A stretch of DNA of 64,000 nucleotides from Nanobdellota archaeon (GTDB taxonomy: Archaea; Nanobdellota; Nanobdellia; Pacearchaeales; GW2011-AR1). A program made the translations under genes and the position numbers. This document shows, piece after piece, positions 217 through 25,787 of the stretch. Below the pieces are notes generated by a model, which had not been told where the DNA came from, made no database searches, and was given only the letters and a program-made list of their open reading frames with translations. Every line of letters begins with the position of its first letter. The first letter of the stretch is position 1. The DNA lies in assembly GCA_038045445.1 (NCBI GenBank), contig JBBSYC010000008.1, positions 870 through 64,869 on the forward strand, written 5' to 3'.

Positions 217-1035
217 TTGACATTTTTGATGAACATATCCGTTGTAATCCCTGTATTTAAGCCAGACAAGATTATTTTTGATAAAATAAGAGCTAAGCTT
301 AAAGAACAAAAATACCTTGGAAAAATTGAGACAATTATTATTGAAAAAGGATCTGGACTTTCTACGCATATTAATCTTGGAATAAAAAAATCAAAATATG
401 ATATTGTTGTTGTCCTTCATCAAGACTGTATTCCTACCTCGAGTAAATGGCTTAAGCTTCTCGTTGCTCCATTTGAAGATAAAAATGTTGTTGCTTCTGT
501 ATCAAGGGTTGAATATCCTGAAGAGCTATGGAATAAACTAAATTATATTGTAAAGGGTTTGATGGTAAAAGAGAAGGGCGTTATAACTTCTTCACTTGAT
601 GGTAAGGCAGTAGCATATCGTAAAAGCTCACTTAATAATATTGGGATGTATGATGAAAATAGTTTTAAGACGGCTGGAGAGGATTATGATTTATATATTA
701 AGTTAAAAAAGATTGGGAAGATTGCATATCCTGATGCATCCGTTTATCATTATCACCCTACGGGATTCGCACAAAGAATTAGAAAGGTCTACCAATACTC
801 TAATGGTTATGGTGCGCTTACTAGAATACATTGGACAAACATGATTTTATGGTATGTTGGAATTATTAAGGCGGTACCATTTTTTGGTTTAATTACTTAT
901 CCATTAAGTTATCCTTGGAAGAAAGGAGGATTGGCTATTTTTCCAGCATATCTTGCATCTTCATTAATAGATCATTTATATTATATCTTTGGATTTTGGA
1001 AAGGTTTTATAGATGGAAAACAAACAGTGAGGTAA
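217..1035 (+). CDS. glycosyltransferase family 2
   Basis: 272-aa ORF with GT-A N-terminus (VVIPVFKP...IIIEKGSG) and an acidic DxD-like region (YDENSFKTAGEDYDLY). Family recognised by eye. Confidence 0.7.
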   Translation: MTFLMNISVVIPVFKPDKIIFDKIRAKLKEQKYLGKIETIIIEKGSGLSTHINLGIKKSKYDIVVVLHQDCIPTSSKWLKLLVAPFEDKNVVASVSRVEYPEELWNKLNYIVKGLMVKEKGVITSSLDGKAVAYRKSSLNNIGMYDENSFKTAGEDYDLYIKLKKIGKIAYPDASVYHYHPTGFAQRIRKVYQYSNGYGALTRIHWTNMILWYVGIIKAVPFFGLITYPLSYPWKKGGLAIFPAYLASSLIDHLYYIFGFWKGFIDGKQTVR

Positions 1036-1037
1036 AT

Positions 1038-1556
1038 ATGAAAAAACTACATCTTGGTTGCGGAAAAAATATCAGAATGGGGTATGTTAATCTTGATTTG
1101 ATTAATCTTAAAGGAGTCGATGTGGTCCACAATCTTAACATTTATCCTTGGCCTTTTAAAAAAAATGAATTTGATTATGTCTTCACATCTCACGTACTCG
1201 AACATTTAGATGGAATAATTAAACCAATGGAAGAAATATGGAGAATAACAAAAAATAAGACTATTATTTCAATAGAAGTTCCTATATTTCCAAGCATTGG
1301 AGCTATGGCAGACCCAACACATAAACAATTTTATACATTTAGGACTTTTGACTACTTTAGACCCGTAGATTCTTTGAATTATTACTCTAAAGCAAGATTC
1401 AATGTTCTATCTAAGAGAATATTATTTTCAAGACCCCTATTCTTTTTTGGTTGGTTCTTTAATTTAAGCCCTAGTATGCAGAGATTTTATATTAATTTTC
1501 TTTCTTTCTTGATTCCCGCATTTGCACTAAAAATTGAACTGGAGACTATTAAATGA
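1038..1556 (+). CDS. class I SAM-dependent methyltransferase (Methyltransf_11/23-like)
   Basis: ATG at 1038 three nt after the stop of the upstream GT2. The product begins MKKLHLGCGKN... and carries an acidic motif (FDYVFTSHVLEHL). The ORF-track N-terminal extension from 915 overlaps the GT2 and was trimmed. Confidence 0.65.
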   Translation: MKKLHLGCGKNIRMGYVNLDLINLKGVDVVHNLNIYPWPFKKNEFDYVFTSHVLEHLDGIIKPMEEIWRITKNKTIISIEVPIFPSIGAMADPTHKQFYTFRTFDYFRPVDSLNYYSKARFNVLSKRILFSRPLFFFGWFFNLSPSMQRFYINFLSFLIPAFALKIELETIK

Positions 1557-2524
1557 GCTATTCTATTAAAGACATTAGCGTGATTATTGCAACCTATAAT
1601 AGGGCTAAAGACCTCAATAAAGCTATTGAATCATTTAAAGATAAAATAAATTCGATAGGAGAATTAATAATAGTTGATCAAAGCACTGATGACTCCACTA
1701 AAAAAGTTGTGAAAAGTTTTAGAAGTAAAAAAATAAGATACTATCATTCCAACAAACCCTCCCTTACTGCTGCACGCAATACTGGTATTGAAAAATTATC
1801 TAAAAATAGCAAGGTTGCCGTTTTTATTGATGATGATGTAACCTTGGATAAAAATTATTTTAATGAAATATTAAATGTATTCAATAAATATCCTAATGCT
1901 AAAGGCGCTGGAGGATACTTTCTTCCAAGAATAAAAATCAATAAATTCGAAAACTTATTAAAAAAATTATTCTTCATAGAACATTATAAAAAAAATAATG
2001 CAAATGTTCATTCTGTATATGGTGCTGTATATCCATCAAAATTAACTAAAATTATTCAAGCTGATTGGATTCCTGGATTTAACATGGCATATAAGACCGA
2101 AATTTTTGCTAAAGAAATATTTGATTCAAAGCTTGTTAAATATGCTCTTGCTGAGGATTTTGATTTTAGCACAAGAGTCAATAAAAGATGGATAAATTCA
2201 TTATATATCACACCTCACGCAAAAATTATTCATCATGTTTCTAATATTGAAAGAACACCGACTGTTAAACTATCATATATGAACCAAATAAATCATATCT
2301 ACATACACTTCAAGACATTTGATTCTTTTTTTAATAACCTTATACTTTTATGGACGTTAATGGGAATACTATTTTTACGCACAATCAAATTATTAGCAAG
2401 CAGAAAAATGGTAGAATTAACCAAAACCAAACTTTACTTAAAGTCTTTAACCTATACTTACAATAATTTGCACTTGATAAAAAAAGGCAGACTTGATTTA
2501 GTTTATAGGTCTTTGTTTAACTGA
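1553..2524 (+). CDS. glycosyltransferase family 2
   Basis: 323-aa product. ISVIIATYNRAKDL...IIVDQSTDDS is a typical GT2 motif set. ATGA overlap with the upstream gene. Confidence 0.7.
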   Translation: MSYSIKDISVIIATYNRAKDLNKAIESFKDKINSIGELIIVDQSTDDSTKKVVKSFRSKKIRYYHSNKPSLTAARNTGIEKLSKNSKVAVFIDDDVTLDKNYFNEILNVFNKYPNAKGAGGYFLPRIKINKFENLLKKLFFIEHYKKNNANVHSVYGAVYPSKLTKIIQADWIPGFNMAYKTEIFAKEIFDSKLVKYALAEDFDFSTRVNKRWINSLYITPHAKIIHHVSNIERTPTVKLSYMNQINHIYIHFKTFDSFFNNLILLWTLMGILFLRTIKLLASRKMVELTKTKLYLKSLTYTYNNLHLIKKGRLDLVYRSLFN

Positions 2525-2558
2525 GGCTATTCTTTAAAATGTCTGAATATTTAGATAT

Positions 2559-4091
2559 TTGATGAGAGAGTCTGAATCCAGTGTGTATTTTAACCGCATC
2601 ATAAAAACATCGGCGTTTGTTCTTATTTTAGTCATGCTTTCAAAAGTTTTAGGCTACGCTTATAAAATAATTATTGCAAGGCACTTTAACGCAGAAGTTT
2701 ATGGGCTTTTTTCACTATCTATGATTGTTATAAGCATAGCTGTGTCCTTGGCTTCTGTCGGCTTATTTGAAGGTTTAGTAAGACAGATATCCATCTATAG
2801 AGGCCAGAAAGATGAAAAAGCAATAAAATATCTGGCTCATGCAAGCAAAAACTTCTTTATAATCAGCGGATTTATTCTTTTTGGAATTACTTTCCTTAGT
2901 GCCCCTTGGATTTCTATTAATATTTTTCATGAGCCTCGATTAATAGTCTTTTTGCGGATAATGGCTTTGGCTATTCCCTTTGTGCTTATAACCAATATGT
3001 TTTTATCCATCCTTCGTGCTTATGAAAAAATAAAAACTCAATCAATAATAACAAACATTATACAAAATAGCTCTAAGTTTTTTATTTTGCTACTTTTCAT
3101 TTTTATTGGATTAAATACTGTATCTGTCCCATTATCTTATTTATTTGCATGCCTAGTAATGGCGATAGTATCCTGGTTTTATGCCAGAAAAATATTAAAT
3201 AAAATTAGAAACACTAAAGAAGAAGCAAGACCCTATAGAGAGCTATTAACTAATGTAATGAGTTACTCATGGCCTTTGATGTTTGTAGGAGTGCTTACAA
3301 GCATATTCTATTGGACCGACTCTTTAATCATTGGATATTATATGGGTGTTGGAAACGTTGGAATTTACAATGTGGCCATAACTCTTGTTGCATTCTTAGG
3401 GATTGTTCCGGAATTATTTATTCAGTTACTATTTCCTGTCGCAGCTAGAAATCTCTCCAATAATAAAGATAATCTTGTAAACCCTTTAATAAAACGCGTG
3501 GCTAAATGGATATTGTTTATTAACTCATTAATTGCTATTATTTGCTTCTTTTTCGCTCCTCAAATTATCTCTCTGTTGTTTGGCAATGAATTCGCTAGTG
3601 CAAGTTCTTTGCTTAGAATATTGGCTGTTGGAGCTCTTTTTACCACACTTGCATCATATTTTACCAATCTACTTACTGTCGTAGGCAAAACAAAAACTAT
3701 TTTGGGTAATTTGATAATGGTTGCTACGATTAATGCGTTATTGGATTTAATAGCAATACCGGTCTGGGGAATGGTCGGAGCAGCCATAGCTACAAGTGTC
3801 TCCGGATTTATTTTATTTTTAATCACATTATACCAAATAAAAAAGTTTTATTCAGTTTCTCCTATAAACGAAAAGGCACTTCTAGTCTTGTTTGAAGCAT
3901 TAATTATTTTTCTGATTGCATTTTTATTCCTTAAAGATTATTCTTTTATTATAGGCTCAATAGTAGTCTTGAGTATTATAATCATTTATATTTTTTCTTT
4001 AATTATGATAAGATTCTTTGATTATGAGGATTATTCCCTCTTCAATAAGATAATCAGAAAAATTTTGTTCATTCATTCAAAAAGTATCTAA
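2559..4091 (+). CDS. oligo/polysaccharide flippase (Wzx/MOP-superfamily-like)
   Basis: 510-aa product, hydrophobic throughout with about 12–14 predicted TM segments. Its context in a glycan cluster supports the call. Confidence 0.6.
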   Translation: MMRESESSVYFNRIIKTSAFVLILVMLSKVLGYAYKIIIARHFNAEVYGLFSLSMIVISIAVSLASVGLFEGLVRQISIYRGQKDEKAIKYLAHASKNFFIISGFILFGITFLSAPWISINIFHEPRLIVFLRIMALAIPFVLITNMFLSILRAYEKIKTQSIITNIIQNSSKFFILLLFIFIGLNTVSVPLSYLFACLVMAIVSWFYARKILNKIRNTKEEARPYRELLTNVMSYSWPLMFVGVLTSIFYWTDSLIIGYYMGVGNVGIYNVAITLVAFLGIVPELFIQLLFPVAARNLSNNKDNLVNPLIKRVAKWILFINSLIAIICFFFAPQIISLLFGNEFASASSLLRILAVGALFTTLASYFTNLLTVVGKTKTILGNLIMVATINALLDLIAIPVWGMVGAAIATSVSGFILFLITLYQIKKFYSVSPINEKALLVLFEALIIFLIAFLFLKDYSFIIGSIVVLSIIIIYIFSLIMIRFFDYEDYSLFNKIIRKILFIHSKSI

Positions 4092-4127: not shown

Positions 4128-4871
4128 ATGCATAAAAAAAATCTGCTTATTACGGGAGCAAGTGGGAAGCTTGGAAGAGCAATTCTTCTTAAAGGCATTC
4201 CTGATAGAAATATATTGACCCCAAGCCACCAAGAGCTTGATATTACAAACAAGAAGTCTGTTGAAGACTACTTTAATAACCATAATATTGATGAGACCAT
4301 TCATTGTGCGGCTATTGCTAGTGTTCTCAAGTGCGAACAAGACCCTAATAAGGCAATATTAACAAATTCTATAGGCACTGCCCATCTAATAGAAGCTTCT
4401 TCTAAAAAAAATAGCCCAAGATTTATTTATATTTCAACAGACTATGTTTATCCTTGCGAAAACGGACCTTACAAAGAGACCGATAGGACTTCTCCTTTCA
4501 CATTATATGCATTTACCAAACTTGGAGGAGAATTAGTTACGAGATCTCTAAAAAATCATTGTATTATACGCACTAGTTTTTTTGATCCCTCTAATATTCC
4601 TTTTGACACTGCATTTACGGACTCTTATTGCTCCAAGTTGCCGATTTATGAAGTTGCTGAAGCCGTAATCAAATTACTTAAATCCAATTTTGTAGGAGTT
4701 ATTAATGTGGGAGGAGAACGCATAAGTTTATATAATTTGTATAAAAAATACAAGCCTCAAATAAAACCAGATAGTATGTTAAATACAAAAGATCAAATAA
4801 AAAGGGCAAAGGATTCTTCTTTAGATATTACATTGTGGAAAAATTTAAAGGGGAAGTTAAATGGCGATTGA
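4128..4871 (+). CDS. NAD(P)-dependent sugar-nucleotide reductase/epimerase (RmlD-like short form)
   Basis: N-terminal Rossmann motif (LLITGASGKLGRAI) and a YxxxK-like catalytic motif (YAFTK). Confidence 0.55.
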   Translation: MHKKNLLITGASGKLGRAILLKGIPDRNILTPSHQELDITNKKSVEDYFNNHNIDETIHCAAIASVLKCEQDPNKAILTNSIGTAHLIEASSKKNSPRFIYISTDYVYPCENGPYKETDRTSPFTLYAFTKLGGELVTRSLKNHCIIRTSFFDPSNIPFDTAFTDSYCSKLPIYEVAEAVIKLLKSNFVGVINVGGERISLYNLYKKYKPQIKPDSMLNTKDQIKRAKDSSLDITLWKNLKGKLNGD

Positions 4872-5244
4872 AAGAGTTGTTTATCTAGAAAAAGGAGATT
4901 TGAATATGAATTCTAGAAGAAGAGCTAGCACAATAACTGAAGGAAAAGATAACGAGTTTGAAATAAGTGAAGTAAGATTATTGGCGATTGATGAAACTGG
5001 TACCTATGGAGGGCACTATAGAGAGTATCCTGAAGTGTGGGGATTTTTGGGAGAAGCGGAAATAACCTTAGAAGATATAGGCACTAAAGAAAGAAGAAAA
5101 TATAAAGCAGTAGATGGGACGAGGCTATTTATTCCTGCAATGGTTGCTTCTAAAGTTGAGGCTAAGAAAGGAACGTCTATAGTAACCTGTGCACCACATA
5201 GTGCAGATAGGGAGAAACAGACACATAAATATTCTATTGCTTAA
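4861..5244 (+). CDS. cupin, WxcM-C/FdtA-like (putative NDP-sugar 3,4-ketoisomerase)
   Basis: GGHYRE is an RGxHxH-like cupin motif and RLFIPAMVA matches the second cupin motif. The gene is GC-richer than its neighbours. The start may instead be the internal Met at 4906. Confidence 0.4.
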   Translation: MAIERVVYLEKGDLNMNSRRRASTITEGKDNEFEISEVRLLAIDETGTYGGHYREYPEVWGFLGEAEITLEDIGTKERRKYKAVDGTRLFIPAMVASKVEAKKGTSIVTCAPHSADREKQTHKYSIA

Positions 5245-6986: not shown

Positions 6987-8591
6987 ATGATAAGAAACAA
7001 TTGTTTAGTCTGTAACTCAACGGATTTGGTTCAAATAATTGATCTTGGAAGCCATCCTTTCGCAGATACTTTTGTTCCTAAATCTAAAATTTCTGAACCA
7101 GACATGATTTATCCCCTTACATGTGACTTATGTAATAAATGCGGTCAGATACAAACAAAATACGTCACAAATCCATTGGCACGCTATTCAGATATAGAAT
7201 ATTCATATACTTCATCTAACTCTACTTTTTCAAGAAATCACTGGGAAGAATATTCAAAAGAAGTTGCTTCAAAAATATGTCTTAAACCAAGTTCATTAGT
7301 AATTGAAATAGGTTCAAACGATGGATATTTATCAGAGCAATTTGTTAAAGCTGGAAATAGCGCTGTTGGTGTAGACCCCTCTCCTTACATGGCTAAATTG
7401 GCAAAGCAGAGAGGCGTTAATACAATTATCAGCCTTTTTGGAAATGAATCTGCAGATGAGATATTAAATAAATATGAAAAAGCAGACCTTATAATTGCGA
7501 ATAATGTTTTTAATCATTCAGATAACCCTGGAGAATTTGTTAAAGCTGTTGAAAAAGTAATGAATGATAATGCGACATTTGTGTTTGAACAACCTTATTG
7601 GATGGATACTCTTAAAAGTGGAAAGTTTGACCAAATATATCATGAACATGTGAGTTATTTTACTGTACGCTCCCTTAAAGCTCTTCTAGAAACTGCAGAT
7701 TTAGTTATTACATCTGTTGAAGTAGTCAATTATCATGGAGGCTCCCTAAGAATATATTCAAAGAAGAAAGAATACTCAGAAGAATCAGAAACTGCTCAAA
7801 AAATGATTGATGATGAATATCAATATGGGGCATTTGACAAAACTACTTATGAAAAATTCATGAAGAAAAATATAGATCAAAGGAATAAATTTTTGAAAAG
7901 AATTTGTGAAATTAAAGAAGAAGGATACAAAATAATTGCTGTGGGGGCGGCTGCAAAGGGAAATACTTTTCTTAATTTTTACAGACTAGATCATAGTTTA
8001 ATAGACTATGTTACTGATTCTTCTCCCCATAAAAAAGGAAAATATACTCCTGCAACTAGAATTCCTATCGTAGGAGATGAAATTTTTAAAGATTTTGATA
8101 AAGTTTATGCTTTAATTTTATCTTGGAACATAGCAAATCAGCTTAGGGAAATACTTGGAAAAATAAATCCAGATATAAAATATATCTCGCCCGAAGAGAC
8201 TTCAAATGGAATTAAAGATGTGATTTACCAAAAAAGAGGAATAGACCATGAGGATGACAGGAGAGCTATCTTAACAGCTTTTAATGGAGACTTAAATGGT
8301 TTTAAAGCATCGCAAGCAAAGATATATCTCATAAAACAAGAAAAAAACCTTGCAGGATGTTATCATGATTATGACGTAGCTTTTTATATATTGGAGGGAG
8401 AAGTAAAATTTATATTAGAAGACTTAAAAACCAAGGAAAGAAAAGAATATAATTTGGAGAAGACAGATACTTTACTAATTCCTTCTAAAGTAGCTTACCA
8501 TGCTATTGCAAAAGCTGGAACAAAAATGGTTGGATTTACAGAAATGCCTTTTGTATCAAGTGAAAAGAATGATATAAAATACGAATTTTAA
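6987..8591 (+). CDS. NDP-hexose C-methyltransferase (TylC3/NovU-like) fused to a C-terminal FdtA/WxcM-like cupin
   Basis: N-terminal Cys-rich zinc-binding region (CLVCNS...CDLCNKCG). SAM-binding motif (VIEIGSNDGYL). The C-terminal ~120 aa (GCYHDYDVAFYILEGEVKF...LLIPSKVAYHAI...DIKYEF) match the FdtA/WxcM-C cupin pattern. Its paralog at 13793..15037 lacks this extension. Confidence 0.65.
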   Translation: MIRNNCLVCNSTDLVQIIDLGSHPFADTFVPKSKISEPDMIYPLTCDLCNKCGQIQTKYVTNPLARYSDIEYSYTSSNSTFSRNHWEEYSKEVASKICLKPSSLVIEIGSNDGYLSEQFVKAGNSAVGVDPSPYMAKLAKQRGVNTIISLFGNESADEILNKYEKADLIIANNVFNHSDNPGEFVKAVEKVMNDNATFVFEQPYWMDTLKSGKFDQIYHEHVSYFTVRSLKALLETADLVITSVEVVNYHGGSLRIYSKKKEYSEESETAQKMIDDEYQYGAFDKTTYEKFMKKNIDQRNKFLKRICEIKEEGYKIIAVGAAAKGNTFLNFYRLDHSLIDYVTDSSPHKKGKYTPATRIPIVGDEIFKDFDKVYALILSWNIANQLREILGKINPDIKYISPEETSNGIKDVIYQKRGIDHEDDRRAILTAFNGDLNGFKASQAKIYLIKQEKNLAGCYHDYDVAFYILEGEVKFILEDLKTKERKEYNLEKTDTLLIPSKVAYHAIAKAGTKMVGFTEMPFVSSEKNDIKYEF

Positions 8592-9412
8592 GCTGTCTTT
8601 CTAAGCTCCATTAAAATTTCTTGTGCAACCCCAAGGCTTACTGCAGCAATCATGGATTTACTCCCCTCAAATTCGTAAAGATCTTTTCCTATGTCTCTGC
8701 CTTCAAAGTCTAAAATGGTGCCTCCAAGTTCTCTCATAAACAAGTATCCTGCACCTAGTTCATGAGCTTTATTTCTGCCACCAATATATGCAACTCCATG
8801 TTGGGCAACTAACGCAAAAGCTACACCTGAAGAAAGAATATCTCTAGAAACTGTCCTTGCCTCTAAACGGCCTATTGCTGGAAGAAAGTCTGGAGTAGCA
8901 CGAGAAGTTTCATGATGATTTACATATATTGTGCTATTTCTTTCTAATTGCTCTGGAAAATTAGTTGCTAACCTAACTCCATTCTTTAATACTCCTTGAC
9001 CTCTTATTGCCTCAAACAAATCCCCTGTTGTGTGAATAATTATTCCTGCGTATACTGCATCTTCATACCTTGGATTGGGTGTGTCAAAAATGGTTGCTAT
9101 TGAACAATAAGGTAAAATTCCTGCTCCATGCTTTTTGTTAAAAGTTCCGTCTATATCGTCGAAGGCTATTGTTTCTAAGGGATTATCTCCAAATTGAACT
9201 CTTTTAAATTCCTCTGTCCATAAAACTGTAGGCACGCCTCTTTTCTCAACTAAAGATTGAATCTCTCTAGAAATCGCAAGATCTGCTTCCAATACCATAT
9301 CTTTATCTGTTTCAACTTGTCTTTCGCCTTCAACACCTAGATCTTTATTTAATCTGTAAGCACTTTCTAGAAGATTCTTACCAAATGCTCTCAAAGAATC
9401 AGGGGAATTCAT
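8588..9412 (-). CDS. inositol-monophosphatase-family phosphatase (IMPase / 3'(2'),5'-bisphosphate nucleotidase-like)
   Basis: 274-aa product with metal-binding motifs of the IMPase fold (WTEE...DDIDGT...). GC-richer than the surrounding glycosyl genes. Confidence 0.6.
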   Translation of the reverse strand: MNSPDSLRAFGKNLLESAYRLNKDLGVEGERQVETDKDMVLEADLAISREIQSLVEKRGVPTVLWTEEFKRVQFGDNPLETIAFDDIDGTFNKKHGAGILPYCSIATIFDTPNPRYEDAVYAGIIIHTTGDLFEAIRGQGVLKNGVRLATNFPEQLERNSTIYVNHHETSRATPDFLPAIGRLEARTVSRDILSSGVAFALVAQHGVAYIGGRNKAHELGAGYLFMRELGGTILDFEGRDIGKDLYEFEGSKSMIAAVSLGVAQEILMELRKTA

Positions 9413-9862
9413 TTATTGTGGAAGAGACCTGAAAACCTCTAAAAGAATATCCTTATTGTGTGGAACCATATGCAATCCCCATATTTCGCTTCTTTCGTAG
9501 AGAGACATTCCCGCTCCTTCTTTTAATCTTACCTGAGACATCCTGCCGTTATCAAAGTTTGCTGTGTAAACCTCGAGTGCACCTTCTCTTCTTCTTCCAT
9601 CTGACGGTCTAATATCAAAGTAAGGTCTTGATCCAAAATATTTAACACCCTTCAATTCAATACCTAATTCCTCAAAAAGTTCTCTTGTTAAAGTGTCTGC
9701 TCCTCTATCCGATTTTCCTTGTTCTATTTTTCCCCCAAAAAAACACCACATTCCAGGATTCCAAGGATAACCTAAATCTTTTCTTTGTAGAAATACTTTT
9801 TTATCTGAAGTTATTGGAACGACTACTGCAGCTTGATTTCTTTCAACCATAATTTTTACCAT
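9413..9862 (-). CDS. NUDIX hydrolase (candidate GDP-mannose mannosyl hydrolase, Gmm-like)
   Basis: NUDIX box GGKIEQGKSD...TRELFEELGI. It abuts the IMPase gene with no gap and lies next to gmd, as gmm does in bacterial gmd-fcl-gmm clusters. Confidence 0.6.
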   Translation of the reverse strand: MVKIMVERNQAAVVVPITSDKKVFLQRKDLGYPWNPGMWCFFGGKIEQGKSDRGADTLTRELFEELGIELKGVKYFGSRPYFDIRPSDGRRREGALEVYTANFDNGRMSQVRLKEGAGMSLYERSEIWGLHMVPHNKDILLEVFRSLPQ

Positions 9863-9919: not shown

Positions 9920-11017
9920 TTATTTCAAAATTCCTCTCTTAATAAGAAAATCTTTTGCTTTCTCAATGTAAAACCCTTTGTGATTGTTGTTTTCTGGATT
10001 AACTAACACCATTCCGTTTTCTTCAAACTGCTCTTTTAAGTCCGCTTCAACCATTGTCTGAACTAATTCTTTAAATTTTATTTTAGGACTCCAACCTAAT
10101 AATCTTTTTGCTTTTGAAGCATCTCCTAATAATGCAGGCACCTCTGCAGGACGCTTGTATCTATCTGAAACTTCTACATAATTATTATAATCTAACCCTA
10201 AGAGCGAGAAAGCTTCCTCTAAGAATTCTCTTACTGTATGAGTTTCTTCCGTTGCTATTACAAAATCATCTGGTTCGTGATGCTGTAAAATTGCCCACAT
10301 TGCTTTAACATATTCTTCGGAATGTCCCCAATCTCTTTTTGCATCTAAATTACCCATAACAATTTTATCTGCATGACCTAAAACTATGCGTGCTAATTCT
10401 CTGGTAATTTTACGTGTTGCAAAATTAATTCCTCTTCTCGGTGATTCGTGATTGAAGAGAATTCCATTTGAAGCGAATAATCCGTAAGCAACTCTATACA
10501 TTCTTGTAAAGTTGAATGCTGCAACCTTAGATACACCATAAGGACTTTGTGGCTTGAAAGGAGTTTCTTCATTTTGAGGGGGTGGAGAAGCTCCAAACAT
10601 TTCTGAGGAAGAAGCTTGATAATATTTACATTTTAGTTTTGAATGATGAATTGCATCTAGAAGACGCAAAGTTCCAAGAGCATTTATATCAAATGTAGTT
10701 GCAGGATTTTCAAAGCTTATCCCTACATGACTCTGTGCAGCTAAATTATAGACTTCATCTGGTTGTACTTTTTCTATGATATTTCTTAAACTTGAGGCAT
10801 CGGTTAAGTCAGCGTGATAACAAACAAATTCTTTTGAGGGATCTTGACCATACTTCATTTTTTTTAATAAGTGTTCTATTCTACCACTATGTATGCTACT
10901 TGAACGCCTGACTATTCCCCTTACATAATAACCTTTACTTAATAAAAATTCTGCAAGATAAGAACCGTCTTGTCCATTTATTCCTGTAATCAAAGCAACT
11001 TTTTTTTCGTTGAGCAT
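9920..11017 (-). CDS. gmd: GDP-mannose 4,6-dehydratase
   Basis: N-terminus VALITGINGQDGSYLAEFLL and NLAAQSHV are textbook GMD motifs; 365 aa. Confidence 0.9.
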   Translation of the reverse strand: MLNEKKVALITGINGQDGSYLAEFLLSKGYYVRGIVRRSSSIHSGRIEHLLKKMKYGQDPSKEFVCYHADLTDASSLRNIIEKVQPDEVYNLAAQSHVGISFENPATTFDINALGTLRLLDAIHHSKLKCKYYQASSSEMFGASPPPQNEETPFKPQSPYGVSKVAAFNFTRMYRVAYGLFASNGILFNHESPRRGINFATRKITRELARIVLGHADKIVMGNLDAKRDWGHSEEYVKAMWAILQHHEPDDFVIATEETHTVREFLEEAFSLLGLDYNNYVEVSDRYKRPAEVPALLGDASKAKRLLGWSPKIKFKELVQTMVEADLKEQFEENGMVLVNPENNNHKGFYIEKAKDFLIKRGILK

Positions 11018-11110: not shown

Positions 11111-12925
11111 TCAACTATTTTGTTTTCTCAATAAATAGAATGGAATTATTATAGAAAATATTGCTAATATCATTAAAATGTATAATATTGAATAAGCCAA
11201 TACATTCAACAGCTTGCTAAATGCTCCATTCACAGAGTAATAGTCAAAAGCTAATTCGGGATATTCATTTCTTGGGATATGATAAAAGAAGTGATTATGA
11301 GTATTATCAATAATATTCAACGCTTGTGGGTTAAACGACAGCCTTGTTTCATAAATTCTATAAAATGGAACCCTCCTTATTTCTGCTCCTCTTACTCCCT
11401 TGATTGATCCTCCTCCTTCAAAAGATTTAATTGAGGAAACTTCTTTAAATTGACTAATCAATAGCTCCATAGATTCGTTGAGCTCTGGCTGGTCTTTAAT
11501 TGTTCCCCAGCCACAATCATCATTTACGCATTCTATAAAAATAGTCTTTACTGGCACAAACTGGCTACTATTTCCTTTTAACAATTCTGCGACATATTGA
11601 GCGTTTATGTAATGCTTATCATAGAACATCCATGCATAAGCCCCTGTATAAATCCTTGAATCTACTAAAATAAGGGTATTCTCTTCTGTCTGAGAAGCAT
11701 AAGACCTTAACTGCTGTGTTGCACTTCTAGAGGTTAATGGATCATGAAGATGCCATAAATTATATGATAAAATAATTATTAATAATAAAGCTATGAAATA
11801 TTTTTGATAAAGAGGTTTATTTATCTTCGACACAATCTGAACTATGAAGTGACTCCCAAATAAAGCAAATAATGAAAAGAATGAAGTATAATGTGTTTGC
11901 AAAACTATTGAAGACGCGATAAATAATAATACAAAAATAAACATTCCTAAGAAAAATAATTTCTCTAGCTTTTTATCTTCTTTTCTTAACCTCTTAAAAC
12001 AATAAAATATTCCAAGTAAACCTATAAGAAAAACCAACAGATCTTCTTTTATGAAATATACTGTAAGAATAGAATATAGATTTTTTACTAATTTGTTTAA
12101 AACAAACCCTTCACCATGGGCAAGCCCTGGACCTGTATAGAATTCAGGGTTTATTCTAAGGAACTGTGCAAGAGGCAAGTCTACAATGCCTTTTGATTTA
12201 AAGAGGAAAATATTATACATTATAATTGGAACTAATCCAATTAACAAAATAACTATAAAAAGAATAAATCTCCTCAAGTTATTTTTAAATAATTCTTTAT
12301 TAGATTTATAATTCTTGAACATAATCCATATCATGAAAATTAAAAATACAATCACAAAGGCTCCTGTGATTATTTTAACCAATTCTGCAATGGCTAAAAA
12401 TACCGCGGCAAGAATCGATATTTTACCTTTATCTTGATAGGACTTAATGAAAAAATAAGAAGCCAGAAGAACAAAAAACATCATTGTCTGGTCTTGATAG
12501 CTTGAGGTCCAAGTTATATGGAAAGCAGATATTGCCAGAAGAAATGCTGCTATCAAACCCGCTTTTTTATTATATAATCTGGTAGCTATCATATAAACTA
12601 CAATTATGGAAAGACTTCCAAATATAAATGACAAAAATCTTGCAGTCAGTAAACTTACTCCAAATATCCTATAAGCATAATCGGTTAAATAATACCATAT
12701 TGGACCTTGAGTCATTGTGCTTAAAGGTGCAAGTTTTGAGAACCCTAATGCATGAACTCCATGAACCATCTCGTCCTCCACATGAGTAAGATTTGATGAT
12801 ACAATAAATCTTAAGATAAATCCAAGCAGAAATATAGAGATTAAGAGAATTTTTTGATTATTTTTAAAATAATTAAAAATAATATCTATAAAGTTACTTT
12901 TTTTATTGCGTCCTTTTTCAATCAT
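11111..12925 (-). CDS. GT39/GT83-family membrane glycosyltransferase (ArnT/PMT-like)
   Basis: 604 aa, polytopic. The N-terminal loop with the DE motif (HVEDEMVHGVHALG) and the TM layout are typical of dolichyl/undecaprenyl-phosphate sugar transferases. Confidence 0.6.
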   Translation of the reverse strand: MIEKGRNKKSNFIDIIFNYFKNNQKILLISIFLLGFILRFIVSSNLTHVEDEMVHGVHALGFSKLAPLSTMTQGPIWYYLTDYAYRIFGVSLLTARFLSFIFGSLSIIVVYMIATRLYNKKAGLIAAFLLAISAFHITWTSSYQDQTMMFFVLLASYFFIKSYQDKGKISILAAVFLAIAELVKIITGAFVIVFLIFMIWIMFKNYKSNKELFKNNLRRFILFIVILLIGLVPIIMYNIFLFKSKGIVDLPLAQFLRINPEFYTGPGLAHGEGFVLNKLVKNLYSILTVYFIKEDLLVFLIGLLGIFYCFKRLRKEDKKLEKLFFLGMFIFVLLFIASSIVLQTHYTSFFSLFALFGSHFIVQIVSKINKPLYQKYFIALLLIIILSYNLWHLHDPLTSRSATQQLRSYASQTEENTLILVDSRIYTGAYAWMFYDKHYINAQYVAELLKGNSSQFVPVKTIFIECVNDDCGWGTIKDQPELNESMELLISQFKEVSSIKSFEGGGSIKGVRGAEIRRVPFYRIYETRLSFNPQALNIIDNTHNHFFYHIPRNEYPELAFDYYSVNGAFSKLLNVLAYSILYILMILAIFSIIIPFYLLRKQNS

Positions 12926-12962
12926 GTAATTATAAAGTTTGAGATTATATAAATATAAAGTA

Positions 12963-13793
12963 TTAATGATTTTTTATCTTTAAATAATAGTCTTTCAAAG
13001 CACCCTGCCATGGTCTTAATTTTATTTTATTTGAAATCAAACATTCGCTTTCTGACCTTGCAGGAATTCCAACAGATGCTGTAAAATTTGTATTTACTAC
13101 TTCAACTAAATTTTTTTTATTTTTTATTGACGCCACTTCTTTTACAACATCATATGCAGAGCCACAGTTGGAATTAGCTATATGAAATATTCCTTTCGAG
13201 TTGGACTGAATAAGTTTTTTTAGTTCATCTATGAAATCAACAATGTATGTTGGAGAACCTGTGCTATCATCTGTAGCTTTTATTCCTGAAAGACTTTCGG
13301 AATTTATAAGATAGTCTATGAATTTTGAAAAACCACTTTTCTTATAACTTAAACCAAACAACCATCCAGTTCTAATAATCAAAAAGTTTTTAGTTATTCT
13401 TTGCAATATTAGTTCTGCCAAATATTTAGTTTTTCCGTATATATTCAATGGGTTTGGCAAGTGGTTCTCGTCAAAATGTTCGCCTGCTTTTCCGTTAAAA
13501 ATCGCTCCACTCGAGATAATTATTATAGGAATATTTAATTCTAAAGCTTCTGTGGCTACATTACATAACCCTAAAACATTAACCTCATACGCAAGAGAAG
13601 GGTTTTTTTCAGAATTATTCAAATCTACTGAAGCAAGACATAATACGGCAGAAGGATTGTATTTTAATAATGCTTTTTTTACATCTTCTATTTTAGTTAT
13701 GTCTAAGTCTTTATGAGATAACTTTATTCCAAATTGTATCTCTTGGGCTATAGCACTATCTTTTCCAATTATAAGAACTTTAGATATATCCAT
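12963..13793 (-). CDS. RmlD-like NDP-4-keto-sugar reductase (SDR superfamily)
   Basis: The region NIYGKTKYLAEL contains a YxxxK catalytic motif. 276-aa product; N-terminus KVLIIGKDSAIAQEI. Confidence 0.5.
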   Translation of the reverse strand: MDISKVLIIGKDSAIAQEIQFGIKLSHKDLDITKIEDVKKALLKYNPSAVLCLASVDLNNSEKNPSLAYEVNVLGLCNVATEALELNIPIIIISSGAIFNGKAGEHFDENHLPNPLNIYGKTKYLAELILQRITKNFLIIRTGWLFGLSYKKSGFSKFIDYLINSESLSGIKATDDSTGSPTYIVDFIDELKKLIQSNSKGIFHIANSNCGSAYDVVKEVASIKNKKNLVEVVNTNFTASVGIPARSESECLISNKIKLRPWQGALKDYYLKIKNH

Positions 13794-15037
13794 TAAAATT
13801 CCTCTACCTTTAAGTCTGGGAAGGGAATTATCATCTTAAAAAAAGGCATAATTTCTTTTAGCCTATTAACAAAACTATCTTTATAATTCCATGAAAGTAA
13901 AAGGAAAGTGATTTTGTCTTTCTCATCTTTAAGTGCTTGAATTGGTTTTACTGGAATGTGAACTCCAGGGGCAACTTTGCCTTGTTTTAAAATAGTATCA
14001 TCTATTATATAGTCTACATCTTTTGAATTAATCCCTATATAATTCATTATTACTACTCCCCTAGCAGGTGCTCCAAGGCCTATGATTTTATGGTTTTTTG
14101 CTTTTTCAATATTTATTAATTTTCTCATTTCAATTTTATAATTCTTTACTTTATTTTCTACTTTTTTGTAATTATCTACATCTGCTAACCCAAATTTAAC
14201 TTCTTCATTTAACAAGTCGCTTACTGATCTAGATATTGGCTTTGTAAATTCATCTTTCATTGCAAATATTCTTAATGAGCCCCCTTGAGTTGGAATCTTT
14301 TCAACATCAAAAACGGTCAGACCAGCCATCCTGAAAGTAGAGATGAGTGAATGCAATGAGAAGGTATACACGTGTTCGTGATAAATTGTATCAAATTCTC
14401 CCCTTAAGATTGTTTCAAGAGCATATACTCCTTCCATCATCAAGACTCCATTATCTTTAAGGATTATTCTTACTCCTTTTAGCAGATCAATATTATTAGG
14501 AGTATGAGGAATAACGTTTAAAGCAATGGCTAAGTCAAATTTTCCCTTATCTTTTAAAATATTTGAAGCTGTTTTTGTGTTGAAAAACTCAGGGATATAA
14601 TCTACTCCTTTTTGTTTATTTACTTCCACAAGATTTAACGCTGGATCCACCCCTAAAACATTTGAAGAGTATTTTTTAAAGAAAGAGAGAAGCGTTCCGT
14701 CATTTGAACCTATCTCTAAAATTTTTGTTTTTTCGTTTAGGCTTAATTTTTTATTTATATGATCTGCTACACTCTCTAAGTGCTGGATATTTGTCTGTGA
14801 GCCTGCAGATAAATGAAGATAATTCCTGAAAAGATCTTGGGGAGGCACAATCTCTTCTAATTGAACAAGAAAACAATTTGGACAATAAGCCAAGTTAAGA
14901 GGATAGGATTTTTCATTTTTTATTTCTTCTTTTGTGATAAAAGCATTTACTGGAGGAATATTTCCTAACTCTAAAAATCTAGATATCTCCTCGAATCCAC
15001 AAGACTTGCATTTTAAGCTATTCATGTAAATTCTCAA
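13793..15037 (-). CDS. NDP-hexose C-methyltransferase (TylC3-like), paralog of 6987..8591
   Basis: N-terminal Cys-rich region (CKSCGF...CPNC) and ILEIGSNDGTL. It is collinear with the other C-methyltransferase; 414 aa. Confidence 0.65.
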   Translation of the reverse strand: MRIYMNSLKCKSCGFEEISRFLELGNIPPVNAFITKEEIKNEKSYPLNLAYCPNCFLVQLEEIVPPQDLFRNYLHLSAGSQTNIQHLESVADHINKKLSLNEKTKILEIGSNDGTLLSFFKKYSSNVLGVDPALNLVEVNKQKGVDYIPEFFNTKTASNILKDKGKFDLAIALNVIPHTPNNIDLLKGVRIILKDNGVLMMEGVYALETILRGEFDTIYHEHVYTFSLHSLISTFRMAGLTVFDVEKIPTQGGSLRIFAMKDEFTKPISRSVSDLLNEEVKFGLADVDNYKKVENKVKNYKIEMRKLINIEKAKNHKIIGLGAPARGVVIMNYIGINSKDVDYIIDDTILKQGKVAPGVHIPVKPIQALKDEKDKITFLLLSWNYKDSFVNRLKEIMPFFKMIIPFPDLKVEEF

Positions 15038-15820
15038 TTATAACTGCTTAAATACCTTATTATGTCCTAAATGTGCCTTCGCCCAAATAAACTGACCCAG
15101 AACTCCGAATGAACGTATAGCATACCAACTAGCTCCTTTTATTGAGTGAGATGTATGGTCTGCATGGTAATCTGCTTCAACAGGAACCTCTTTTACATGC
15201 ATCTTATAATAAGCTGCCTGAGCAATAATTTGGAAGCTGAACAGGTAATCATTAGTATTCTCATCATAAGGAACTTTTTCTAATAGCTTTCGACCATATA
15301 TTCTAAATCCAGTGTGAAATTCAGTTAGTTTTAACCCTAAGACCAAACGATCAAAAAAGCTTAATCCCCTATTAGCAAGGAATCTTATTAGAGGCATTCC
15401 ATCTTTTAGTGCTTGTCCTTTTTTCTGGAAACGAGATCCTAAAATAAGTTGAGCTTTTCCTTCTTGCATATAGGGCATTGCATATTTTATAGAAATTGGA
15501 TTAAATTGAGCGCCGTCTCCATGAATTTCTACAATATAATCTGCACCCATTTCAAGAGCTTTCTTTATTCCAGCTTTAAGGTTCCCACCATAACCTCTAT
15601 TTGGAACATGCCTGAATGCTTTTAATCCTAATTTTTTAGCTACCTCATAAGTTCCATCTTTAGAGCCGTCATCCATCAATATCAGATCATCCAAAAGCTC
15701 TTTTGGTATTGCCTTTATCCTTTCTACTGCGCGGGGTAACATTCTTGCAACATTGTATGCTAGAATTACTCCAATTACTTTAGGTTTTTTTATACCATAC
15801 TTTAGTTGTTTCTTAACCAT
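15038..15820 (-). CDS. glycosyltransferase family 2 (dolichyl-phosphate hexose synthase-like)
   Basis: VIGVILAYNVARML...LMDDGSKDGT... matches Dpm1-like GT2 enzymes. Confidence 0.65.
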   Translation of the reverse strand: MVKKQLKYGIKKPKVIGVILAYNVARMLPRAVERIKAIPKELLDDLILMDDGSKDGTYEVAKKLGLKAFRHVPNRGYGGNLKAGIKKALEMGADYIVEIHGDGAQFNPISIKYAMPYMQEGKAQLILGSRFQKKGQALKDGMPLIRFLANRGLSFFDRLVLGLKLTEFHTGFRIYGRKLLEKVPYDENTNDYLFSFQIIAQAAYYKMHVKEVPVEADYHADHTSHSIKGASWYAIRSFGVLGQFIWAKAHLGHNKVFKQL

Positions 15821-19341: not shown

Positions 19342-19746
19342 CTATCTGTATCTCCCCCTACCTTTTGCTACGTACATCAAGTTGAAAGTATCTGTTCCTT
19401 TATTATGAGGGAATGGTGCCTCTCTAAAATAAGTTCTACTAACATTTAAAAGTGCCAAGTCTTCCAAGTCTAACCCTGATTCTTGTTTTGCCACTTGCAT
19501 TATTCCTTCTTCCGAGGAAGTCCCTTTTTGTAAGCGCCCGCCGACAGGCCATAATTCTCTTAATGCAGGAGCATTTCTTCTCTCCAAAAGCAGAAATCCT
19601 CCACAACACTCAATTAGAACATCTGCGCACAAGATTATCGAATTTCTATGAATTATTAGGTATTCTTCCTCTGGTATAAACCCTATTCTCAAACGGTTTA
19701 AATCAATAGGCCTGCCGTCTTCAAGTGCATACTCTTTATAATCCAT
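19342..19746 (-). CDS. NUDIX-like hydrolase (divergent)
   Basis: LLLERRNAP...WPVGGRLQKG...EEGIMQVAKQESGL is NUDIX-fold-like but divergent. The TAG stop is in frame with, and directly abuts, the upstream cupin gene. Confidence 0.4.
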   Translation of the reverse strand: MDYKEYALEDGRPIDLNRLRIGFIPEEEYLIIHRNSIILCADVLIECCGGFLLLERRNAPALRELWPVGGRLQKGTSSEEGIMQVAKQESGLDLEDLALLNVSRTYFREAPFPHNKGTDTFNLMYVAKGRGRYR

Positions 19747-20259
19747 CTAAATTAAAGGAAAAGAGATGTAATTTCCTTTATCGTGTGGGTTAAAATCGTT
19801 GGGGGCATCTACTATAAACGGAACTAAAACGCTTCCGGAGCTTAAAATAAAGGTGTGCGCCAATCCTGGAGAAACCTTTACAAATTTTCTATTTGGATCT
19901 GAGCTATCTACATCTAATGTTGTTTCAACACCAAATAAACCTTGATATTTTGAGCATTGTGCGATAGACTCTGGAACAACTATTTCTGGTTTTATTCTAT
20001 TTGTTTCTCCGGGCATTACTGCTCTTATAATGAGAGTTCCCTTACCTTTTGCTATTGTAAAATATTCTCCATAATTGGCATGAAAATGTTGTCCTAATGG
20101 CAATCCAGAAGTATCTAAGACATCTATAAAGTTTACTACTGCTATTTCTTGACCATGTAAATATCCTATAGGCATATCAGTAATTACTCTTCTACTATCT
20201 CTGTGACCCCCTGCTGGGTGTACCCTTACCATACCTTCTAGTTCAGATTCCTTTGACAT
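19747..20259 (-). CDS. cupin-domain protein (possible sugar isomerase/epimerase)
   Basis: LGQHFHANYGEYF and SPGLAHTF are two cupin motifs. The stop is TAG, immediately followed by the ATG of the next gene in the same frame. Confidence 0.4.
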   Translation of the reverse strand: MSKESELEGMVRVHPAGGHRDSRRVITDMPIGYLHGQEIAVVNFIDVLDTSGLPLGQHFHANYGEYFTIAKGKGTLIIRAVMPGETNRIKPEIVVPESIAQCSKYQGLFGVETTLDVDSSDPNRKFVKVSPGLAHTFILSSGSVLVPFIVDAPNDFNPHDKGNYISFPLI

Positions 20260-24833: not shown

Positions 24834-25787
24834 ATGAAACTGTCTGAGTTTGTTCAAAAGAAAATTTTAGTTACTGGGGGAGCAGGCTTTCTCGGTAAAG
24901 TGGTAGTTAGAAGACTTCTTAAGTTAGGGGTTCCTAAAAAAAATATTTTTGTTCCAAGAAGCCGAAATTATGACTTAAGAGATGGTAGAAATATCCAAAG
25001 AGTGTTCACCACTTTTAAACCAAACATAGTTATTCATCTTGCTGCTAATGTTGGAGGTATAGGTTATAACAAAGAGAATCCAGGTTCTATTTTTTATGAT
25101 AATGTGGCTATGGGAACACAATTAATTGAGAGGGCACGTCTTAGCAAAGTTGAAAAAATCATTGTAACTGGAACAGTTTGCTCATATCCTAAATTTACAA
25201 AGGTTCCTTTTAATGAATCTGAAATTTGGAACGGATACCCTGAAGAAAATAATGCTTTTTATGGAATAGCTAAAAAGGCTATTCTCGTACAGCTTCAGGC
25301 CTATAAAAGACAATACGGTCTTAAAGGCGTTTATCTTTTGCTCACAAATCTTTATGGCCCTGGGGATAACTTTGAAACTGAAAGTTCTCATGTTATTCCT
25401 GCATTAATTAAAAAAATTAGCCATGCTGTTGAAAATAATTTGAATGGAGTTACACTTTGGGGCACTGGAAATGCAATTAGAGAATTTGTGTATGTGGAAG
25501 ATGCTACCGAAGCGATAATAAAGGCAACTTTAAATTACAATAAAGAAGAGCCTGTTAATGTTGGTTCCGGAGAGCATATTTCAATAAGGAACCTTGCCGA
25601 AATAATTTCAAGATTACTTAAATTTAAAGGAAAAATAAACTGGGATTCAAGTAAACCTGATGGATACTTAATAAGATATCTCAACATTGATAAAGCTAAT
25701 AAAGAATTTGGGTTTAAAGCTAAAACAAAACTTAGAAGTGGTCTTAAAAAAACAGTTGAATGGTATCTTGCTAACAAGAAAAAGTAA
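24834..25787 (+). CDS. fcl: GDP-L-fucose synthase (GDP-4-keto-6-deoxymannose 3,5-epimerase/4-reductase)
   Basis: ILVTGGAGFLGK...HLAANVGGI...YGIAKKA and the overall 317-aa layout match Fcl/WcaG. Confidence 0.8.
   Translation: MKLSEFVQKKILVTGGAGFLGKVVVRRLLKLGVPKKNIFVPRSRNYDLRDGRNIQRVFTTFKPNIVIHLAANVGGIGYNKENPGSIFYDNVAMGTQLIERARLSKVEKIIVTGTVCSYPKFTKVPFNESEIWNGYPEENNAFYGIAKKAILVQLQAYKRQYGLKGVYLLLTNLYGPGDNFETESSHVIPALIKKISHAVENNLNGVTLWGTGNAIREFVYVEDATEAIIKATLNYNKEEPVNVGSGEHISIRNLAEIISRLLKFKGKINWDSSKPDGYLIRYLNIDKANKEFGFKAKTKLRSGLKKTVEWYLANKKK

Follow-up and report, generated by a model that had tools for sequence, protein, structure and literature searches.

The window analysed here is the whole stretch of 64,000 nucleotides (nt) at positions 870 to 64,869 (forward strand) of contig JBBSYC010000008.1, from the Nanobdellota archaeon assembly GCA_038045445.1. 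At 6987..8591 it carries an open reading frame (ORF) that encodes a sugar C-methyltransferase (MT) joined through a short linker to a small cupin domain. This fusion ORF lies in a cluster with Gmd (a GDP-mannose 4,6-dehydratase), RmlD-like 4-ketoreductases, a stand-alone cupin paralog, a second MT, glycosyltransferases and a Wzx-type flippase (Table 1). The window is archaeal (DPANN), with an S13-S4-S11-RpoD-L18e-L13-S9 operon and DUF655, and among its syntenic relatives the nearest is a Pacearchaeota metagenome-assembled genome (MAG).

The fusion gene and its origin

Residues 1-394 of the 534-amino-acid (aa) product read as a complete nucleoside diphosphate (NDP)-hexose C-methyltransferase of the TylC3/TcaB9 type, dependent on S-adenosylmethionine (SAM) and with its catalytic motif intact. 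This agrees with the preliminary description of the DNA, which had proposed a TylC3/NovU-type C-methyltransferase at 6987-8591 and hidden Markov model searches with Methyltransf_13/14. Both domains were found above their cutoffs, the Methyltransf_13 (PF08421) zinc-ribbon at residues 6-63 (49.1 bits, cutoff 31.3) and Methyltransf_14 (PF08484) at residues 249-389 (123.2 bits, cutoff 23.5), together with class-I SAM methyltransferase domains at residues 99-243 (PF13489, PF08241 and PF08242, above cutoff). The zinc-ribbon cysteines of the fusion are Cys6, 9, 46/49 and 52, and the CxxC...CxxC pattern is visible in both MTs of the window. The closest solved structures are sugar 3-C-methyltransferases, namely 4rv9 (E 7.9e-57, residues 5-394), the KijD1-type 5t6b (4.6e-50; also 5t64) and TcaB9 (3ndi, 3.6e-45). 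The catalytic motif, FDQIYHEH at residues 214-221, has its counterparts in FDQIYDEH of TcaB9/KijD1 and FDTIYHEH of 4rv9, and FDxIY-x-EH is kept in both window MTs. We take this Tyr-x-Glu-His motif to represent the TcaB9 active-site residues targeted in the mutant structures 4e2w-4e33.

The second, unfused MT (MT-B), which had also been anticipated at 13793-15037, is encoded on the minus strand and shares 32% identity with the fusion MT over 399 aa (E 8e-69), with the same domains (PF08421 67.6 bits, PF08484 129.9 bits; 4rv9 at 7.3e-69) and the motif FDTIYHEH. The MT clade is common in Pacearchaeota/Nanoarchaeota MAGs, and its predicted function is SAM-dependent C-methylation of an NDP-4-keto-6-deoxyhexose, for which regiochemistry and nucleotide are taken from context. 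The window MTs share with TylC3/TcaB9/KijD1 (4rv9, 3ndi, 5t6b) the order of zinc-ribbon, class-I SAM domain and Methyltransf_14, aligned over about 390 residues (E 1e-45 to 1e-69). The latter are, however, bacterial secondary-metabolite enzymes that are unfused and act on deoxythymidine diphosphate (dTDP)-sugars, whereas the window enzymes are archaeal, stand in the guanosine diphosphate (GDP)-sugar context of Gmd and include one copy with a cupin.

In the DNA alignment, the junction reads ACT TCA AAT GGA ATT AAA in the window and ...TAA N ATG... in the relatives, that is, MT stop codon, spacer base and cupin start codon. The codon at 8202-8204 is TCA where the relatives have the MT stop codon (TAA), and AAT at 8205-8207 takes the place of the cupin ATG, with 1 base missing near the start codon relative to the neighbours of the L015 type, which brings the two genes into a single frame with a flexible linker between them. 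The peptide across the MT–cupin junction is YISPEETSNGIK, and the fusion product would have about 61 kDa, as against about 46 kDa for the MT alone. The ancestral cupin ATG is kept out of frame at 8206-8208 (8206-8222: ATG GAA TTA AAG ATG TGA), and the first in-frame alternative start within the cupin is a GTG at 8220 (V412), from which a slightly shortened cupin may be translated separately. A bacterial promoter/terminator scan around the ORF was uninformative, finding 9 sites where 8.3 were expected and no terminators, with bacterial models that are unsuited to archaea. In the full-length AlphaFold2 (AF2) model, the MT has a predicted local distance difference test score (pLDDT) of about 85-97, the linker is disordered (pLDDT <50 at residues 388-405) and the predicted template modelling score (pTM) is 0.68.

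The fusion is genuine, since the identical 534-aa protein occurs on 16 contigs from at least five samples. The five places displayed belong to five different samples (ENA ERZ1292618, ERZ1292621 and ERZ1292641, which are Hainich groundwater assemblies, and Logan SRR32696698 and ERR3858113). It is very improbable that the fusion is an artefact, such as a frameshift from sequencing or assembly, or that the locus is decaying, with its junction pseudogenised and the cupin no longer functionally expressed. The junction does look error-like, differing from the relatives only in one substituted stop codon and in length by 1 nt, and a single 90%-identity cluster has the fusion. Nevertheless, the displayed places are separate assemblies, two changes instead of one are required at the junction, and the cupin frame is fully open, 69-82% identical to its orthologs and low in nonsynonymous divergence (dN). 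An assembly or sequencing artefact was rejected on the 16 identical copies and the two junction changes. The fusion is very recent, lineage-specific and confined to one groundwater population, instead of a conserved architecture; in the relatives, MT and cupin are neighbouring but separate genes. Long forms account for only three of the 120 best MT clusters (the window fusion, P0266 and P0197), in line with the earlier remark that such an MT fusion is unusual.

In the relatives, the gene order is the same as in the window and MT and cupin are separate genes. Two loci (L001, L002) have an MT of 405 aa and a cupin of 128 aa with a 171-aa gene on the opposite strand between them, which in L001 (9424-9939) is a homolog of the window gene at 19747..20259 (54% identity by tblastn, at 9427-9939 of L001). 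In others, MT and cupin are co-directional, with a gap of 5 nt in L010-L014 and of 1 nt in L015 and L016. MT orthologs at 59-64% identity have a 156-aa PF14667 cupin as the next gene on the same strand, near Gmd-like and short-chain dehydrogenase/reductase (SDR) genes (L024, L025), or have one nearby (L026), and small WbuC-like cupin ORFs stand upstream of the MT in L018, L024 and L026. Independent MT fusions join a CapF-type cupin in P0266, whose locus has a DegT aminotransferase, and a WbuC-type cupin in P0197. One Woesearchaeota genome clusters an RmlD-like gene, a NUDIX gene, an MT and three cupins of the family described below, and in another genome a family cupin lies between two Gmd paralogs. 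From this adjacency across relatives, together with the independent fusions, the functional link between MT clade and sugar-cluster cupins is seen to be old and robust, whereas the covalent link in the window is new.

Several further features of the related loci were observed. In distant loci (L018 7583-11888; L024/L025 2373-7880), a WbuC-like ORF of about 140 aa lies upstream of the MT and a PF14667 cupin lies downstream or is fused, and the DegT/EryC1 aminotransferase of L018 points to amino-deoxy sugars with C-methylation elsewhere among the DPANN lineages. The Gmd of relatives measures 749-750 aa (L001 12909-15158, minus strand; L010 4720-6972, minus strand), as against the uninterrupted 365 aa of the window Gmd, and the two Gmd halves in L001 (tblastn 12918-13475 and 14583-15158) are split by an insert of about 370 aa, which may be an intein.

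Table 1. Features of the fusion ORF and of the surrounding cluster, in window coordinates
Feature	Coordinates	Strand	Evidence or remark
Fusion ORF, C-methyltransferase + linker + cupin, 534 aa	6987..8591	+	Intact; NCBI copy is P0160, a Nanoarchaeota MAG protein
MT domain, residues 1-~394: zinc-ribbon, SAM domain, Methyltransf_14	6987..8168	+	Pfam, PDB match, AF2
Linker, residues ~395-406 (...DIKYISPEETS), ~12 aa, from the former MT C-terminal tail	8169..8204	+	DNA alignment
Cupin domain, residues 407-534, 128 aa	8205..8588	+	Search matches, AF2, Foldseek
GT2, small methyltransferase, GT2, Wzx-type flippase, opening the cluster	217..4091	+	Pfam
Compact RmlD-like NDP-4-keto-sugar reductase, 247 aa	4128..4871	+	Pfam RmlD_sub_bind 1.4e-33
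Stand-alone cupin paralog, 127 aa, H-R-E-S subclass	4861..5244	+	34% identity to fused cupin, E 3e-16
Glycosyltransferase-like protein, Glyco_trans_1_2, 556 aa	5234..6904	-	Lies between module A's two halves, where it is conserved
Inositol-monophosphatase-family protein	8588..9412	-	Convergent with fusion ORF, overlaps its stop codon
NUDIX hydrolase beside Gmd (possible GDP-sugar hydrolase)	9413..9862	-	NUDIX-cupin fusions occur in the cupin family
Gmd, 365 aa (GDP-mannose 4,6-dehydratase)	9920..11017	-	PF16363 1.3e-124; TIGR01472 443 bits, equivalog cutoff 415
PMT_2/PMT-family membrane glycosyltransferase, 604 aa	11111..12925	-	Pfam
Full-length RmlD-like 4-ketoreductase, 276 aa, start abuts MT-B end	12963..13793	-	Domain searches
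Second unfused MT (MT-B), 414-aa ORF, probably 410 aa from ATG at 15025	13793..15037	-	Pfam, PDB
GT2 glycosyltransferase, downstream partner in module B	15038..15820	-	Domain searches
Third, divergent cupin-family member, 170 aa, intact H-H-E-H	19747..20259	-	hhalign against A4, probability 96.4, E 1.4e-9

The cupin family and its metal-site positions

The C-terminal 128 aa of the fusion are a cupin of a small unnamed family. This family is akin to the sugar-nucleotide cupins CapF-C, WbuC and FdtA, with CapF-C/WbuC standing nearest. The preliminary description had called this extension FdtA-like, and had done the same for the stand-alone cupin at 4861-5244; it had also proposed a search with PF05523 and a structure prediction. 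The cupin fold was upheld. The AF2 model of the domain is an all-beta barrel, and not an unrelated fold, with a pLDDT of 79.6 and 294 cupin matches at E<1e-3 in Foldseek, the best of them 2pae (FdtA; E 6e-6, TM 0.67), 4zu4, 5tpv, 2pa7 and 4o9g (E 6e-6 to 6e-5, TM 0.61-0.69). The top structural neighbours are thus 3,4-ketoisomerases (FdtA, the isomerase domain of FdtD, WlaRA/WlaRB and QdtA), and the RmlC, ChmJ and StrM epimerases follow at ranks 28-49; these and unrelated cupins are less than 10-fold away in E-value. The family assignment did not hold, as the fused domain has no PF05523 match (full protein at E<=1, domain at E<=0.01) and does not keep the FdtA histidine pair. The stand-alone cupin is a true paralog of the fused domain, though not an FdtA family member.

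Membership of the window cupins in the FdtA (PF05523), RmlC (PF00908), WbuC (TIGR04366) and CapF-C (PF14667) families was considered, and no threshold was reached. The fused domain had no PF00908 match in any scan, and neither PF14667 nor TIGR04366 (cutoff 42 bits) matched the window cupins. Their sole curated-family match is a sub-threshold one of the C-terminal domain to Cupin_2 (E 5e-4). A search with the domain alone returned nine close homologs at 69-82% identity, all free-standing proteins of 128 aa.

An exhaustive profile search of 1.84 billion proteins gave 231 representatives of the cupin family at 50% identity. Stand-alone proteins of about 125-150 aa predominate, alongside some tandem bicupins and a few fusions to NUDIX, GT2 or Gmd-like SDR proteins; the neighbours and fusion partners of the family comprise NUDIX, GT2, Gmd-like SDR and Gmd itself. 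A search for related loci with the A3 alignment recovered only 4 species-level genomes (2 Woesearchaeota, 2 Methanosarcinales), so that the taxonomic spread is poorly sampled. Among 77 members compared with Pfam, 54 matched Cupin_2, 34 matched PF14667 (E<=0.01, best 5e-8) and 7 matched PF05523 weakly (best 1.4e-6). TIGR04366 gave 23.2 bits (5e-5) for P0010 and 18.2 bits for P0008 within the family, and 41.2 bits for the extension of P0197. The family consensus, LGGHYHxYxE...G...IPxxVAH, is the classical metal-binding cupin motif. Run against the PDB, the domain and two family profiles matched significantly only generic Cupin_2, ARD and PGI proteins; WlaRA came out at E 0.012 and CapF at 0.04. 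The family alignment A4 aligned with the C-terminal PF14667 domain of P0266 over 99 columns (hhalign, 96.5% probability, E 9e-10), in which HxDxRR falls on HKDERG and HxH...E...H falls on CapF H288, H290, E295 and H337. The P0266 cupin itself reaches 35.6 bits against 28.7 for PF14667, matches CapF 2zkl/4yrd at E 1.2e-4 and also matches the WbjC reductase model NF047837 in its C-terminal part.

These comparisons set the window cupins among several known types. With FdtA, QdtA, WlaRA and FdtD, which are the nearest structures to the predicted cupin (TM 0.61-0.69), have about 130-140 aa and act on NDP-4-keto-6-deoxyhexoses, the fused domain shares size and fold, and FdtD resembles the window protein in that a ketoisomerase cupin is fused to a second sugar-modifying enzyme (PDB titles). 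In contrast to the FdtA group, the window domain has no PF05523 match, its histidine pair is not kept and its family consensus is metal-cupin-like. The CapF/WbjC cupin (PF14667; 3st7, 2zkl, 4yrd) is likewise a cupin of nucleotide-sugar metabolism and works on a 4-keto-6-deoxy intermediate directly ahead of its reduction at C4 by an SDR. Its profile aligns with that of the family, the DERG/HxDxRR segment and HxH...E...H line up, and the stand-alone window cupin overlaps the preceding SDR gene in what may be read as a split CapF layout. CapF requires, however, a Zn2+ bound by His/Glu, whereas the window copies have C/H/V/Y and H/R/E/S at these positions, and the partner of the fused copy is a methyltransferase instead of an SDR. 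WbuC proteins (TIGR04366) are also small cupins in 6-deoxy-sugar clusters, with weak family matches and with a WbuC-type cupin fused to an orthologous MT in P0197, but neither window cupin matches TIGR04366, and no demonstrated WbuC activity was found in the literature. The RmlC-type 3,5-epimerases (PF00908, about 180-200 aa, His-Asp dyad plus Tyr) differ from the window cupin in length (128 aa) and by its having no PF00908 match.

The motif of the fused cupin is C458-Y-H460...V464...Y504 (C52, H54, V58 and Y98 of the domain), with a conserved H421-x-D423-x-R425-R426. Most of the family (59/77) has H-H-E-H at the four positions, 12/77 have H-R-E-x, among them the stand-alone paralog at 4861 (H-R-E-S) and its orthologs, and 3/77 in A4, namely the fused domain and its nearest orthologs, have C-H-V-Y. 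Three of the four metal-ligand positions of the family are replaced in the fused cupin (H-H-E-H to C-H-V-Y). Across the A1 alignment of 8 sequences (the window and P0001-P0007), C52, H54 and Y98 are invariant and position 58 varies among V, T and S; P0008 and P0009, at 69% identity and with the same synteny, retain H-H-E-H. The histidine pair mutated in FdtA structures (H49N, H51N) is kept in neither window cupin, being C458-Y-H460 in the fused and H-Y-R in the stand-alone copy, where the equivalence to FdtA His49/51 is drawn through the shared cupin motif and not through a residue-level structural alignment. Against the relatives, dN is 0.12-0.25 for the cupin and 0.18-0.26 for the MT, with synonymous differences (pS) saturated at 0.62-0.80, and the fused cupin is under strong purifying selection and is not decaying.

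A proposed pathway and its alternatives

We favour, at about an even chance, the reading that the ORF is a young, genuine fusion of neighbouring genes of a GDP-sugar module, the product of which would methylate and then epimerise GDP-4-keto-6-deoxymannose. Gmd (9920-11017), which by its domain scores is bona fide and which the preliminary description had already named as the nucleotide-sugar entry enzyme (TIGR01472 443 bits against 415), would supply GDP-4-keto-6-deoxy-D-mannose. The MT domain would deprotonate C3 and methylate it with SAM by way of the 3,4-enolate, and the tethered cupin could then perform enolisation chemistry on the same 4-keto intermediate, most likely epimerisation at C5, because the methylated C3 has no proton. 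The RmlD-like reductase (4128-4871), with the second cupin after it, would reduce C4 to give a GDP-6-deoxy-3-C-methyl-hexose, to be used by the glycosyltransferases, the Wzx-type flippase and the PMT_2-type transferase of the cluster. Module B (MT-B and RmlD, 15037-12963, without a cupin) would yield another C-methyl sugar that is not epimerised. The covalent link as such probably does no more than fix a 1:1 stoichiometry and keep the two domains close together.

This order of steps is that of dTDP-L-mycarose biosynthesis, in which C3-methylation by TylC3 is followed by TylK, a 5-epimerase cupin of the RmlC type, and by 4-ketoreduction by TylC2. TylK belongs, however, to the RmlC family (PF00908, about 200 aa), unlike the 128-aa window cupin with no PF00908 match. 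The same step logic has been proposed for virenose (6-deoxy-3-C-methyl-gulose) of Coxiella burnetii, where Gmd, a TylC3-like 3-C-methyltransferase and an epimerase/reductase would act in turn on GDP-4-keto-6-deoxy-D-mannose (PMC3539893). The window also has a gene like those of GDP-fucose synthase (GFS) and GDP-4-keto-6-deoxymannose epimerase/reductase (GMER), at 24834-25787. The virenose route is itself in silico and differs from our proposal in that epimerisation falls to the SDR (GMER), with neither cupin nor fusion, and in that it serves a bacterial lipopolysaccharide and not an archaeal glycan.

Several points weigh against the favoured reading. The cupin family has no characterised member, and the best structural neighbours of the modelled domain are ketoisomerases and not epimerases. 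Gene context and the nearest solved homologs are the sole basis for the nucleotide (GDP or dTDP) and the methylated carbon (C3 or C5). The full-length AF2 model shows no confident docking of MT and cupin and no usable interface, the linker and the cupin N-terminus being of low confidence; it leaves the domains undocked and therefore gives no support for channelling. The fused cupin is without equivalents of CapF H288, E295 and H337. In CapF, the cupin epimerises a 4-keto sugar right before SDR reduction, and Zn2+ is essential for this (PMC5393024), so that, with those positions replaced, the fused cupin may have no catalytic activity left. The real epimerase could be the cupin at 19747-20259, whose motif is intact.

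These last points lead to the main rival of the favoured reading, unlikely at somewhat better than one chance in four, that the fused cupin is a non-catalytic pseudo-enzyme with a binding or scaffold role, serving the MT by nucleotide-sugar binding, dimerisation or hand-off, and that any epimerisation would be done by 19747-20259 or by the GFS-like SDR at 24834-25787. The replacement of three of the four family ligand positions, equivalent to the Zn site of CapF, is what would be expected of it, and the retained HxDxRR (DERG in CapF-type cupins) suggests that ligand binding has been kept. The window also encodes an H-H-E-H family member and a GDP-fucose-synthase-like enzyme, and strong purifying selection is equally compatible with a binding role. 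Against this, the replacements are Cys and Tyr, which are capable of acid/base chemistry and do not vary within the subclade, in contrast to the V, T or S at the former Glu position, so that a re-tooled active site would be expected instead of an abandoned one; moreover, MT-adjacent cupins of other lineages keep their His ligands. Within the favoured reading, the constancy of Cys, His and Tyr across the subclade and the strong purifying selection point to a shift of the fused cupin to metal-independent acid/base catalysis, as opposed to decay, speculative as this step is. Cys and His serve as epimerisation catalysts in GMER (PMC3539893). In its fullest form, this idea makes the C-H-x-Y cupins (the fused domain and its closest orthologs) a newly evolved, metal-independent Cys/His(/Tyr) epimerase derived from a metal-dependent CapF/WbuC-like cupin, and the fusion a methylate-then-epimerise enzyme for a GDP-linked 3-C-methyl-6-deoxy-hexose, which we regard as rather unlikely, a little more so than the non-catalytic role.

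It is improbable that the cupin is a 3,4-ketoisomerase of the FdtA/QdtA type, moving the keto group from C4 to C3, which would make the fusion a methyltransferase-ketoisomerase. The Foldseek ranking (FdtA 2pae at E 6e-6 and TM 0.67, the FdtD isomerase domain, WlaRA/WlaRB and QdtA), the weak PF05523 matches of 7/77 family members (best 1.4e-6), the WlaRA match at E 0.012 in the PDB profile search and the occurrence of FdtA-type domains in fusions such as FdtD all speak for it. The window domain, however, has no PF05523 match, the sequence profile favours metal cupins and the CapF type, the motif-1 His pair is C-x-H in the fused and H-x-R in the stand-alone copy, and the Foldseek margin over RmlC/ChmJ epimerases and unrelated cupins is less than 10-fold in E-value. 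The chemistry is a further objection. Once methylated at C3, the 4-keto sugar lacks the C3-H that an isomerase would have to move, and a sugar with its keto group at C3 could not take a methyl group there, so that, by enolate chemistry, ketoisomerisation misfits the same branch. An epimerase role, comparable to that of the CapF cupin ahead of its SDR or of TylK after TylC3, suits this branch better. The keto-isomerisation step put forward in the preliminary description is therefore chemically incompatible with 3-C-methylation of the same intermediate.

There is similarly little likelihood that the MTs act on another carbon or carrier, as in NovU-like C5 methylation or on dTDP or cytidine diphosphate (CDP) sugars, in which case the partner chemistry of the cupin, ketoisomerisation included, would differ. 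Only C3-methyltransferases of the MT family have been solved, and the PDB ranking cannot tell the regiochemistry for that reason. The two MTs are just 32% identical, which suggests two specificities, CTP_transf_like genes and an RmlC-like gene occur in relatives, and a DegT aminotransferase stands at the P0266 locus. Nevertheless, Gmd is the sole 4,6-dehydratase of the cluster and is syntenic in relatives, and linkage or fusion to Gmd-like and NUDIX proteins recurs in the cupin family.

To date, bacterial antibiotics and a small number of lipopolysaccharides are the main known sources of C-branched deoxyhexoses. The preliminary description had regarded such sugar chemistry as rare for archaea; nothing relevant on archaeal 3-C-methyl sugars or MT–cupin fusions was found in the literature. 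If the favoured reading is true, the surface of DPANN archaea would carry C-branched 6-deoxyhexoses derived from GDP-mannose, and tiny as DPANN genomes are, more than 15 kb of the window is given to the cluster. What is new here is a young, population-specific fusion within an old MT–cupin partnership, in which the metal site of the fused cupin has been re-tooled or lost. The same MT clade, independently fused to three different sugar-cluster cupins, offers a natural experiment, and one cupin subclade has changed from His/His/Glu/His to Cys/His/x/Tyr with its strong constraint maintained. Because the 231-representative family is without a characterised member, a single assay would annotate it. 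Should the fusion prove to be a methylate-then-epimerise enzyme with a metal-independent epimerase, a branched-chain sugar pathway would for the first time have been demonstrated in the surface glycan of an archaeon (DPANN), and the whole cupin family would gain a function. The practical impact would be modest, with components of known kinds and a fusion limited to one groundwater population.

Other genes of the window

The compact reductase at 4128..4871 matches the PDB entry 2ggs, a compact archaeal RmlD homolog, from end to end (1.6e-22, residues 6-234) and reaches 107 bits with TIGR01214, below cutoff; CapF was not among its PDB matches. The start of the stand-alone cupin gene overlaps it by 11 nt, and the order of short RmlD and then cupin is kept in L001, L016 and L020 (Woesearchaeota). 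The phosphatase gene at 8588..9412 and the cupin are in strict synteny throughout the related loci, frequently together with a CTP_transf_like gene, which the window does not have.

The third cupin-family member, at 19747..20259, has the motif stretch GHRDSRR...LGQHFHANYGEYF...PGLAHTF and gave no match by sequence in the PDB. A weak NUDIX-like ORF (19342-19746, minus strand) adjoins it and echoes the NUDIX-cupin fusions of the family. The GDP-L-fucose-synthase-like SDR (24834-25787, plus strand) scores 271 bits with NF047922, below the cutoff of 500, lies about 14 kb from Gmd and adjoins the 5S rRNA at 25826-25941; as another candidate, it may serve as 3,5-epimerase/4-reductase for the same GDP-4-keto intermediate. 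Three giant ORFs on the minus strand (37263-47876, 50891-53770 and 59393-63973; 3537, 959 and 1526 aa) have sparse Big_13, Big_3_2, fn3 and PKD matches, and probably encode surface proteins, which are possible acceptors of the cluster glycan.

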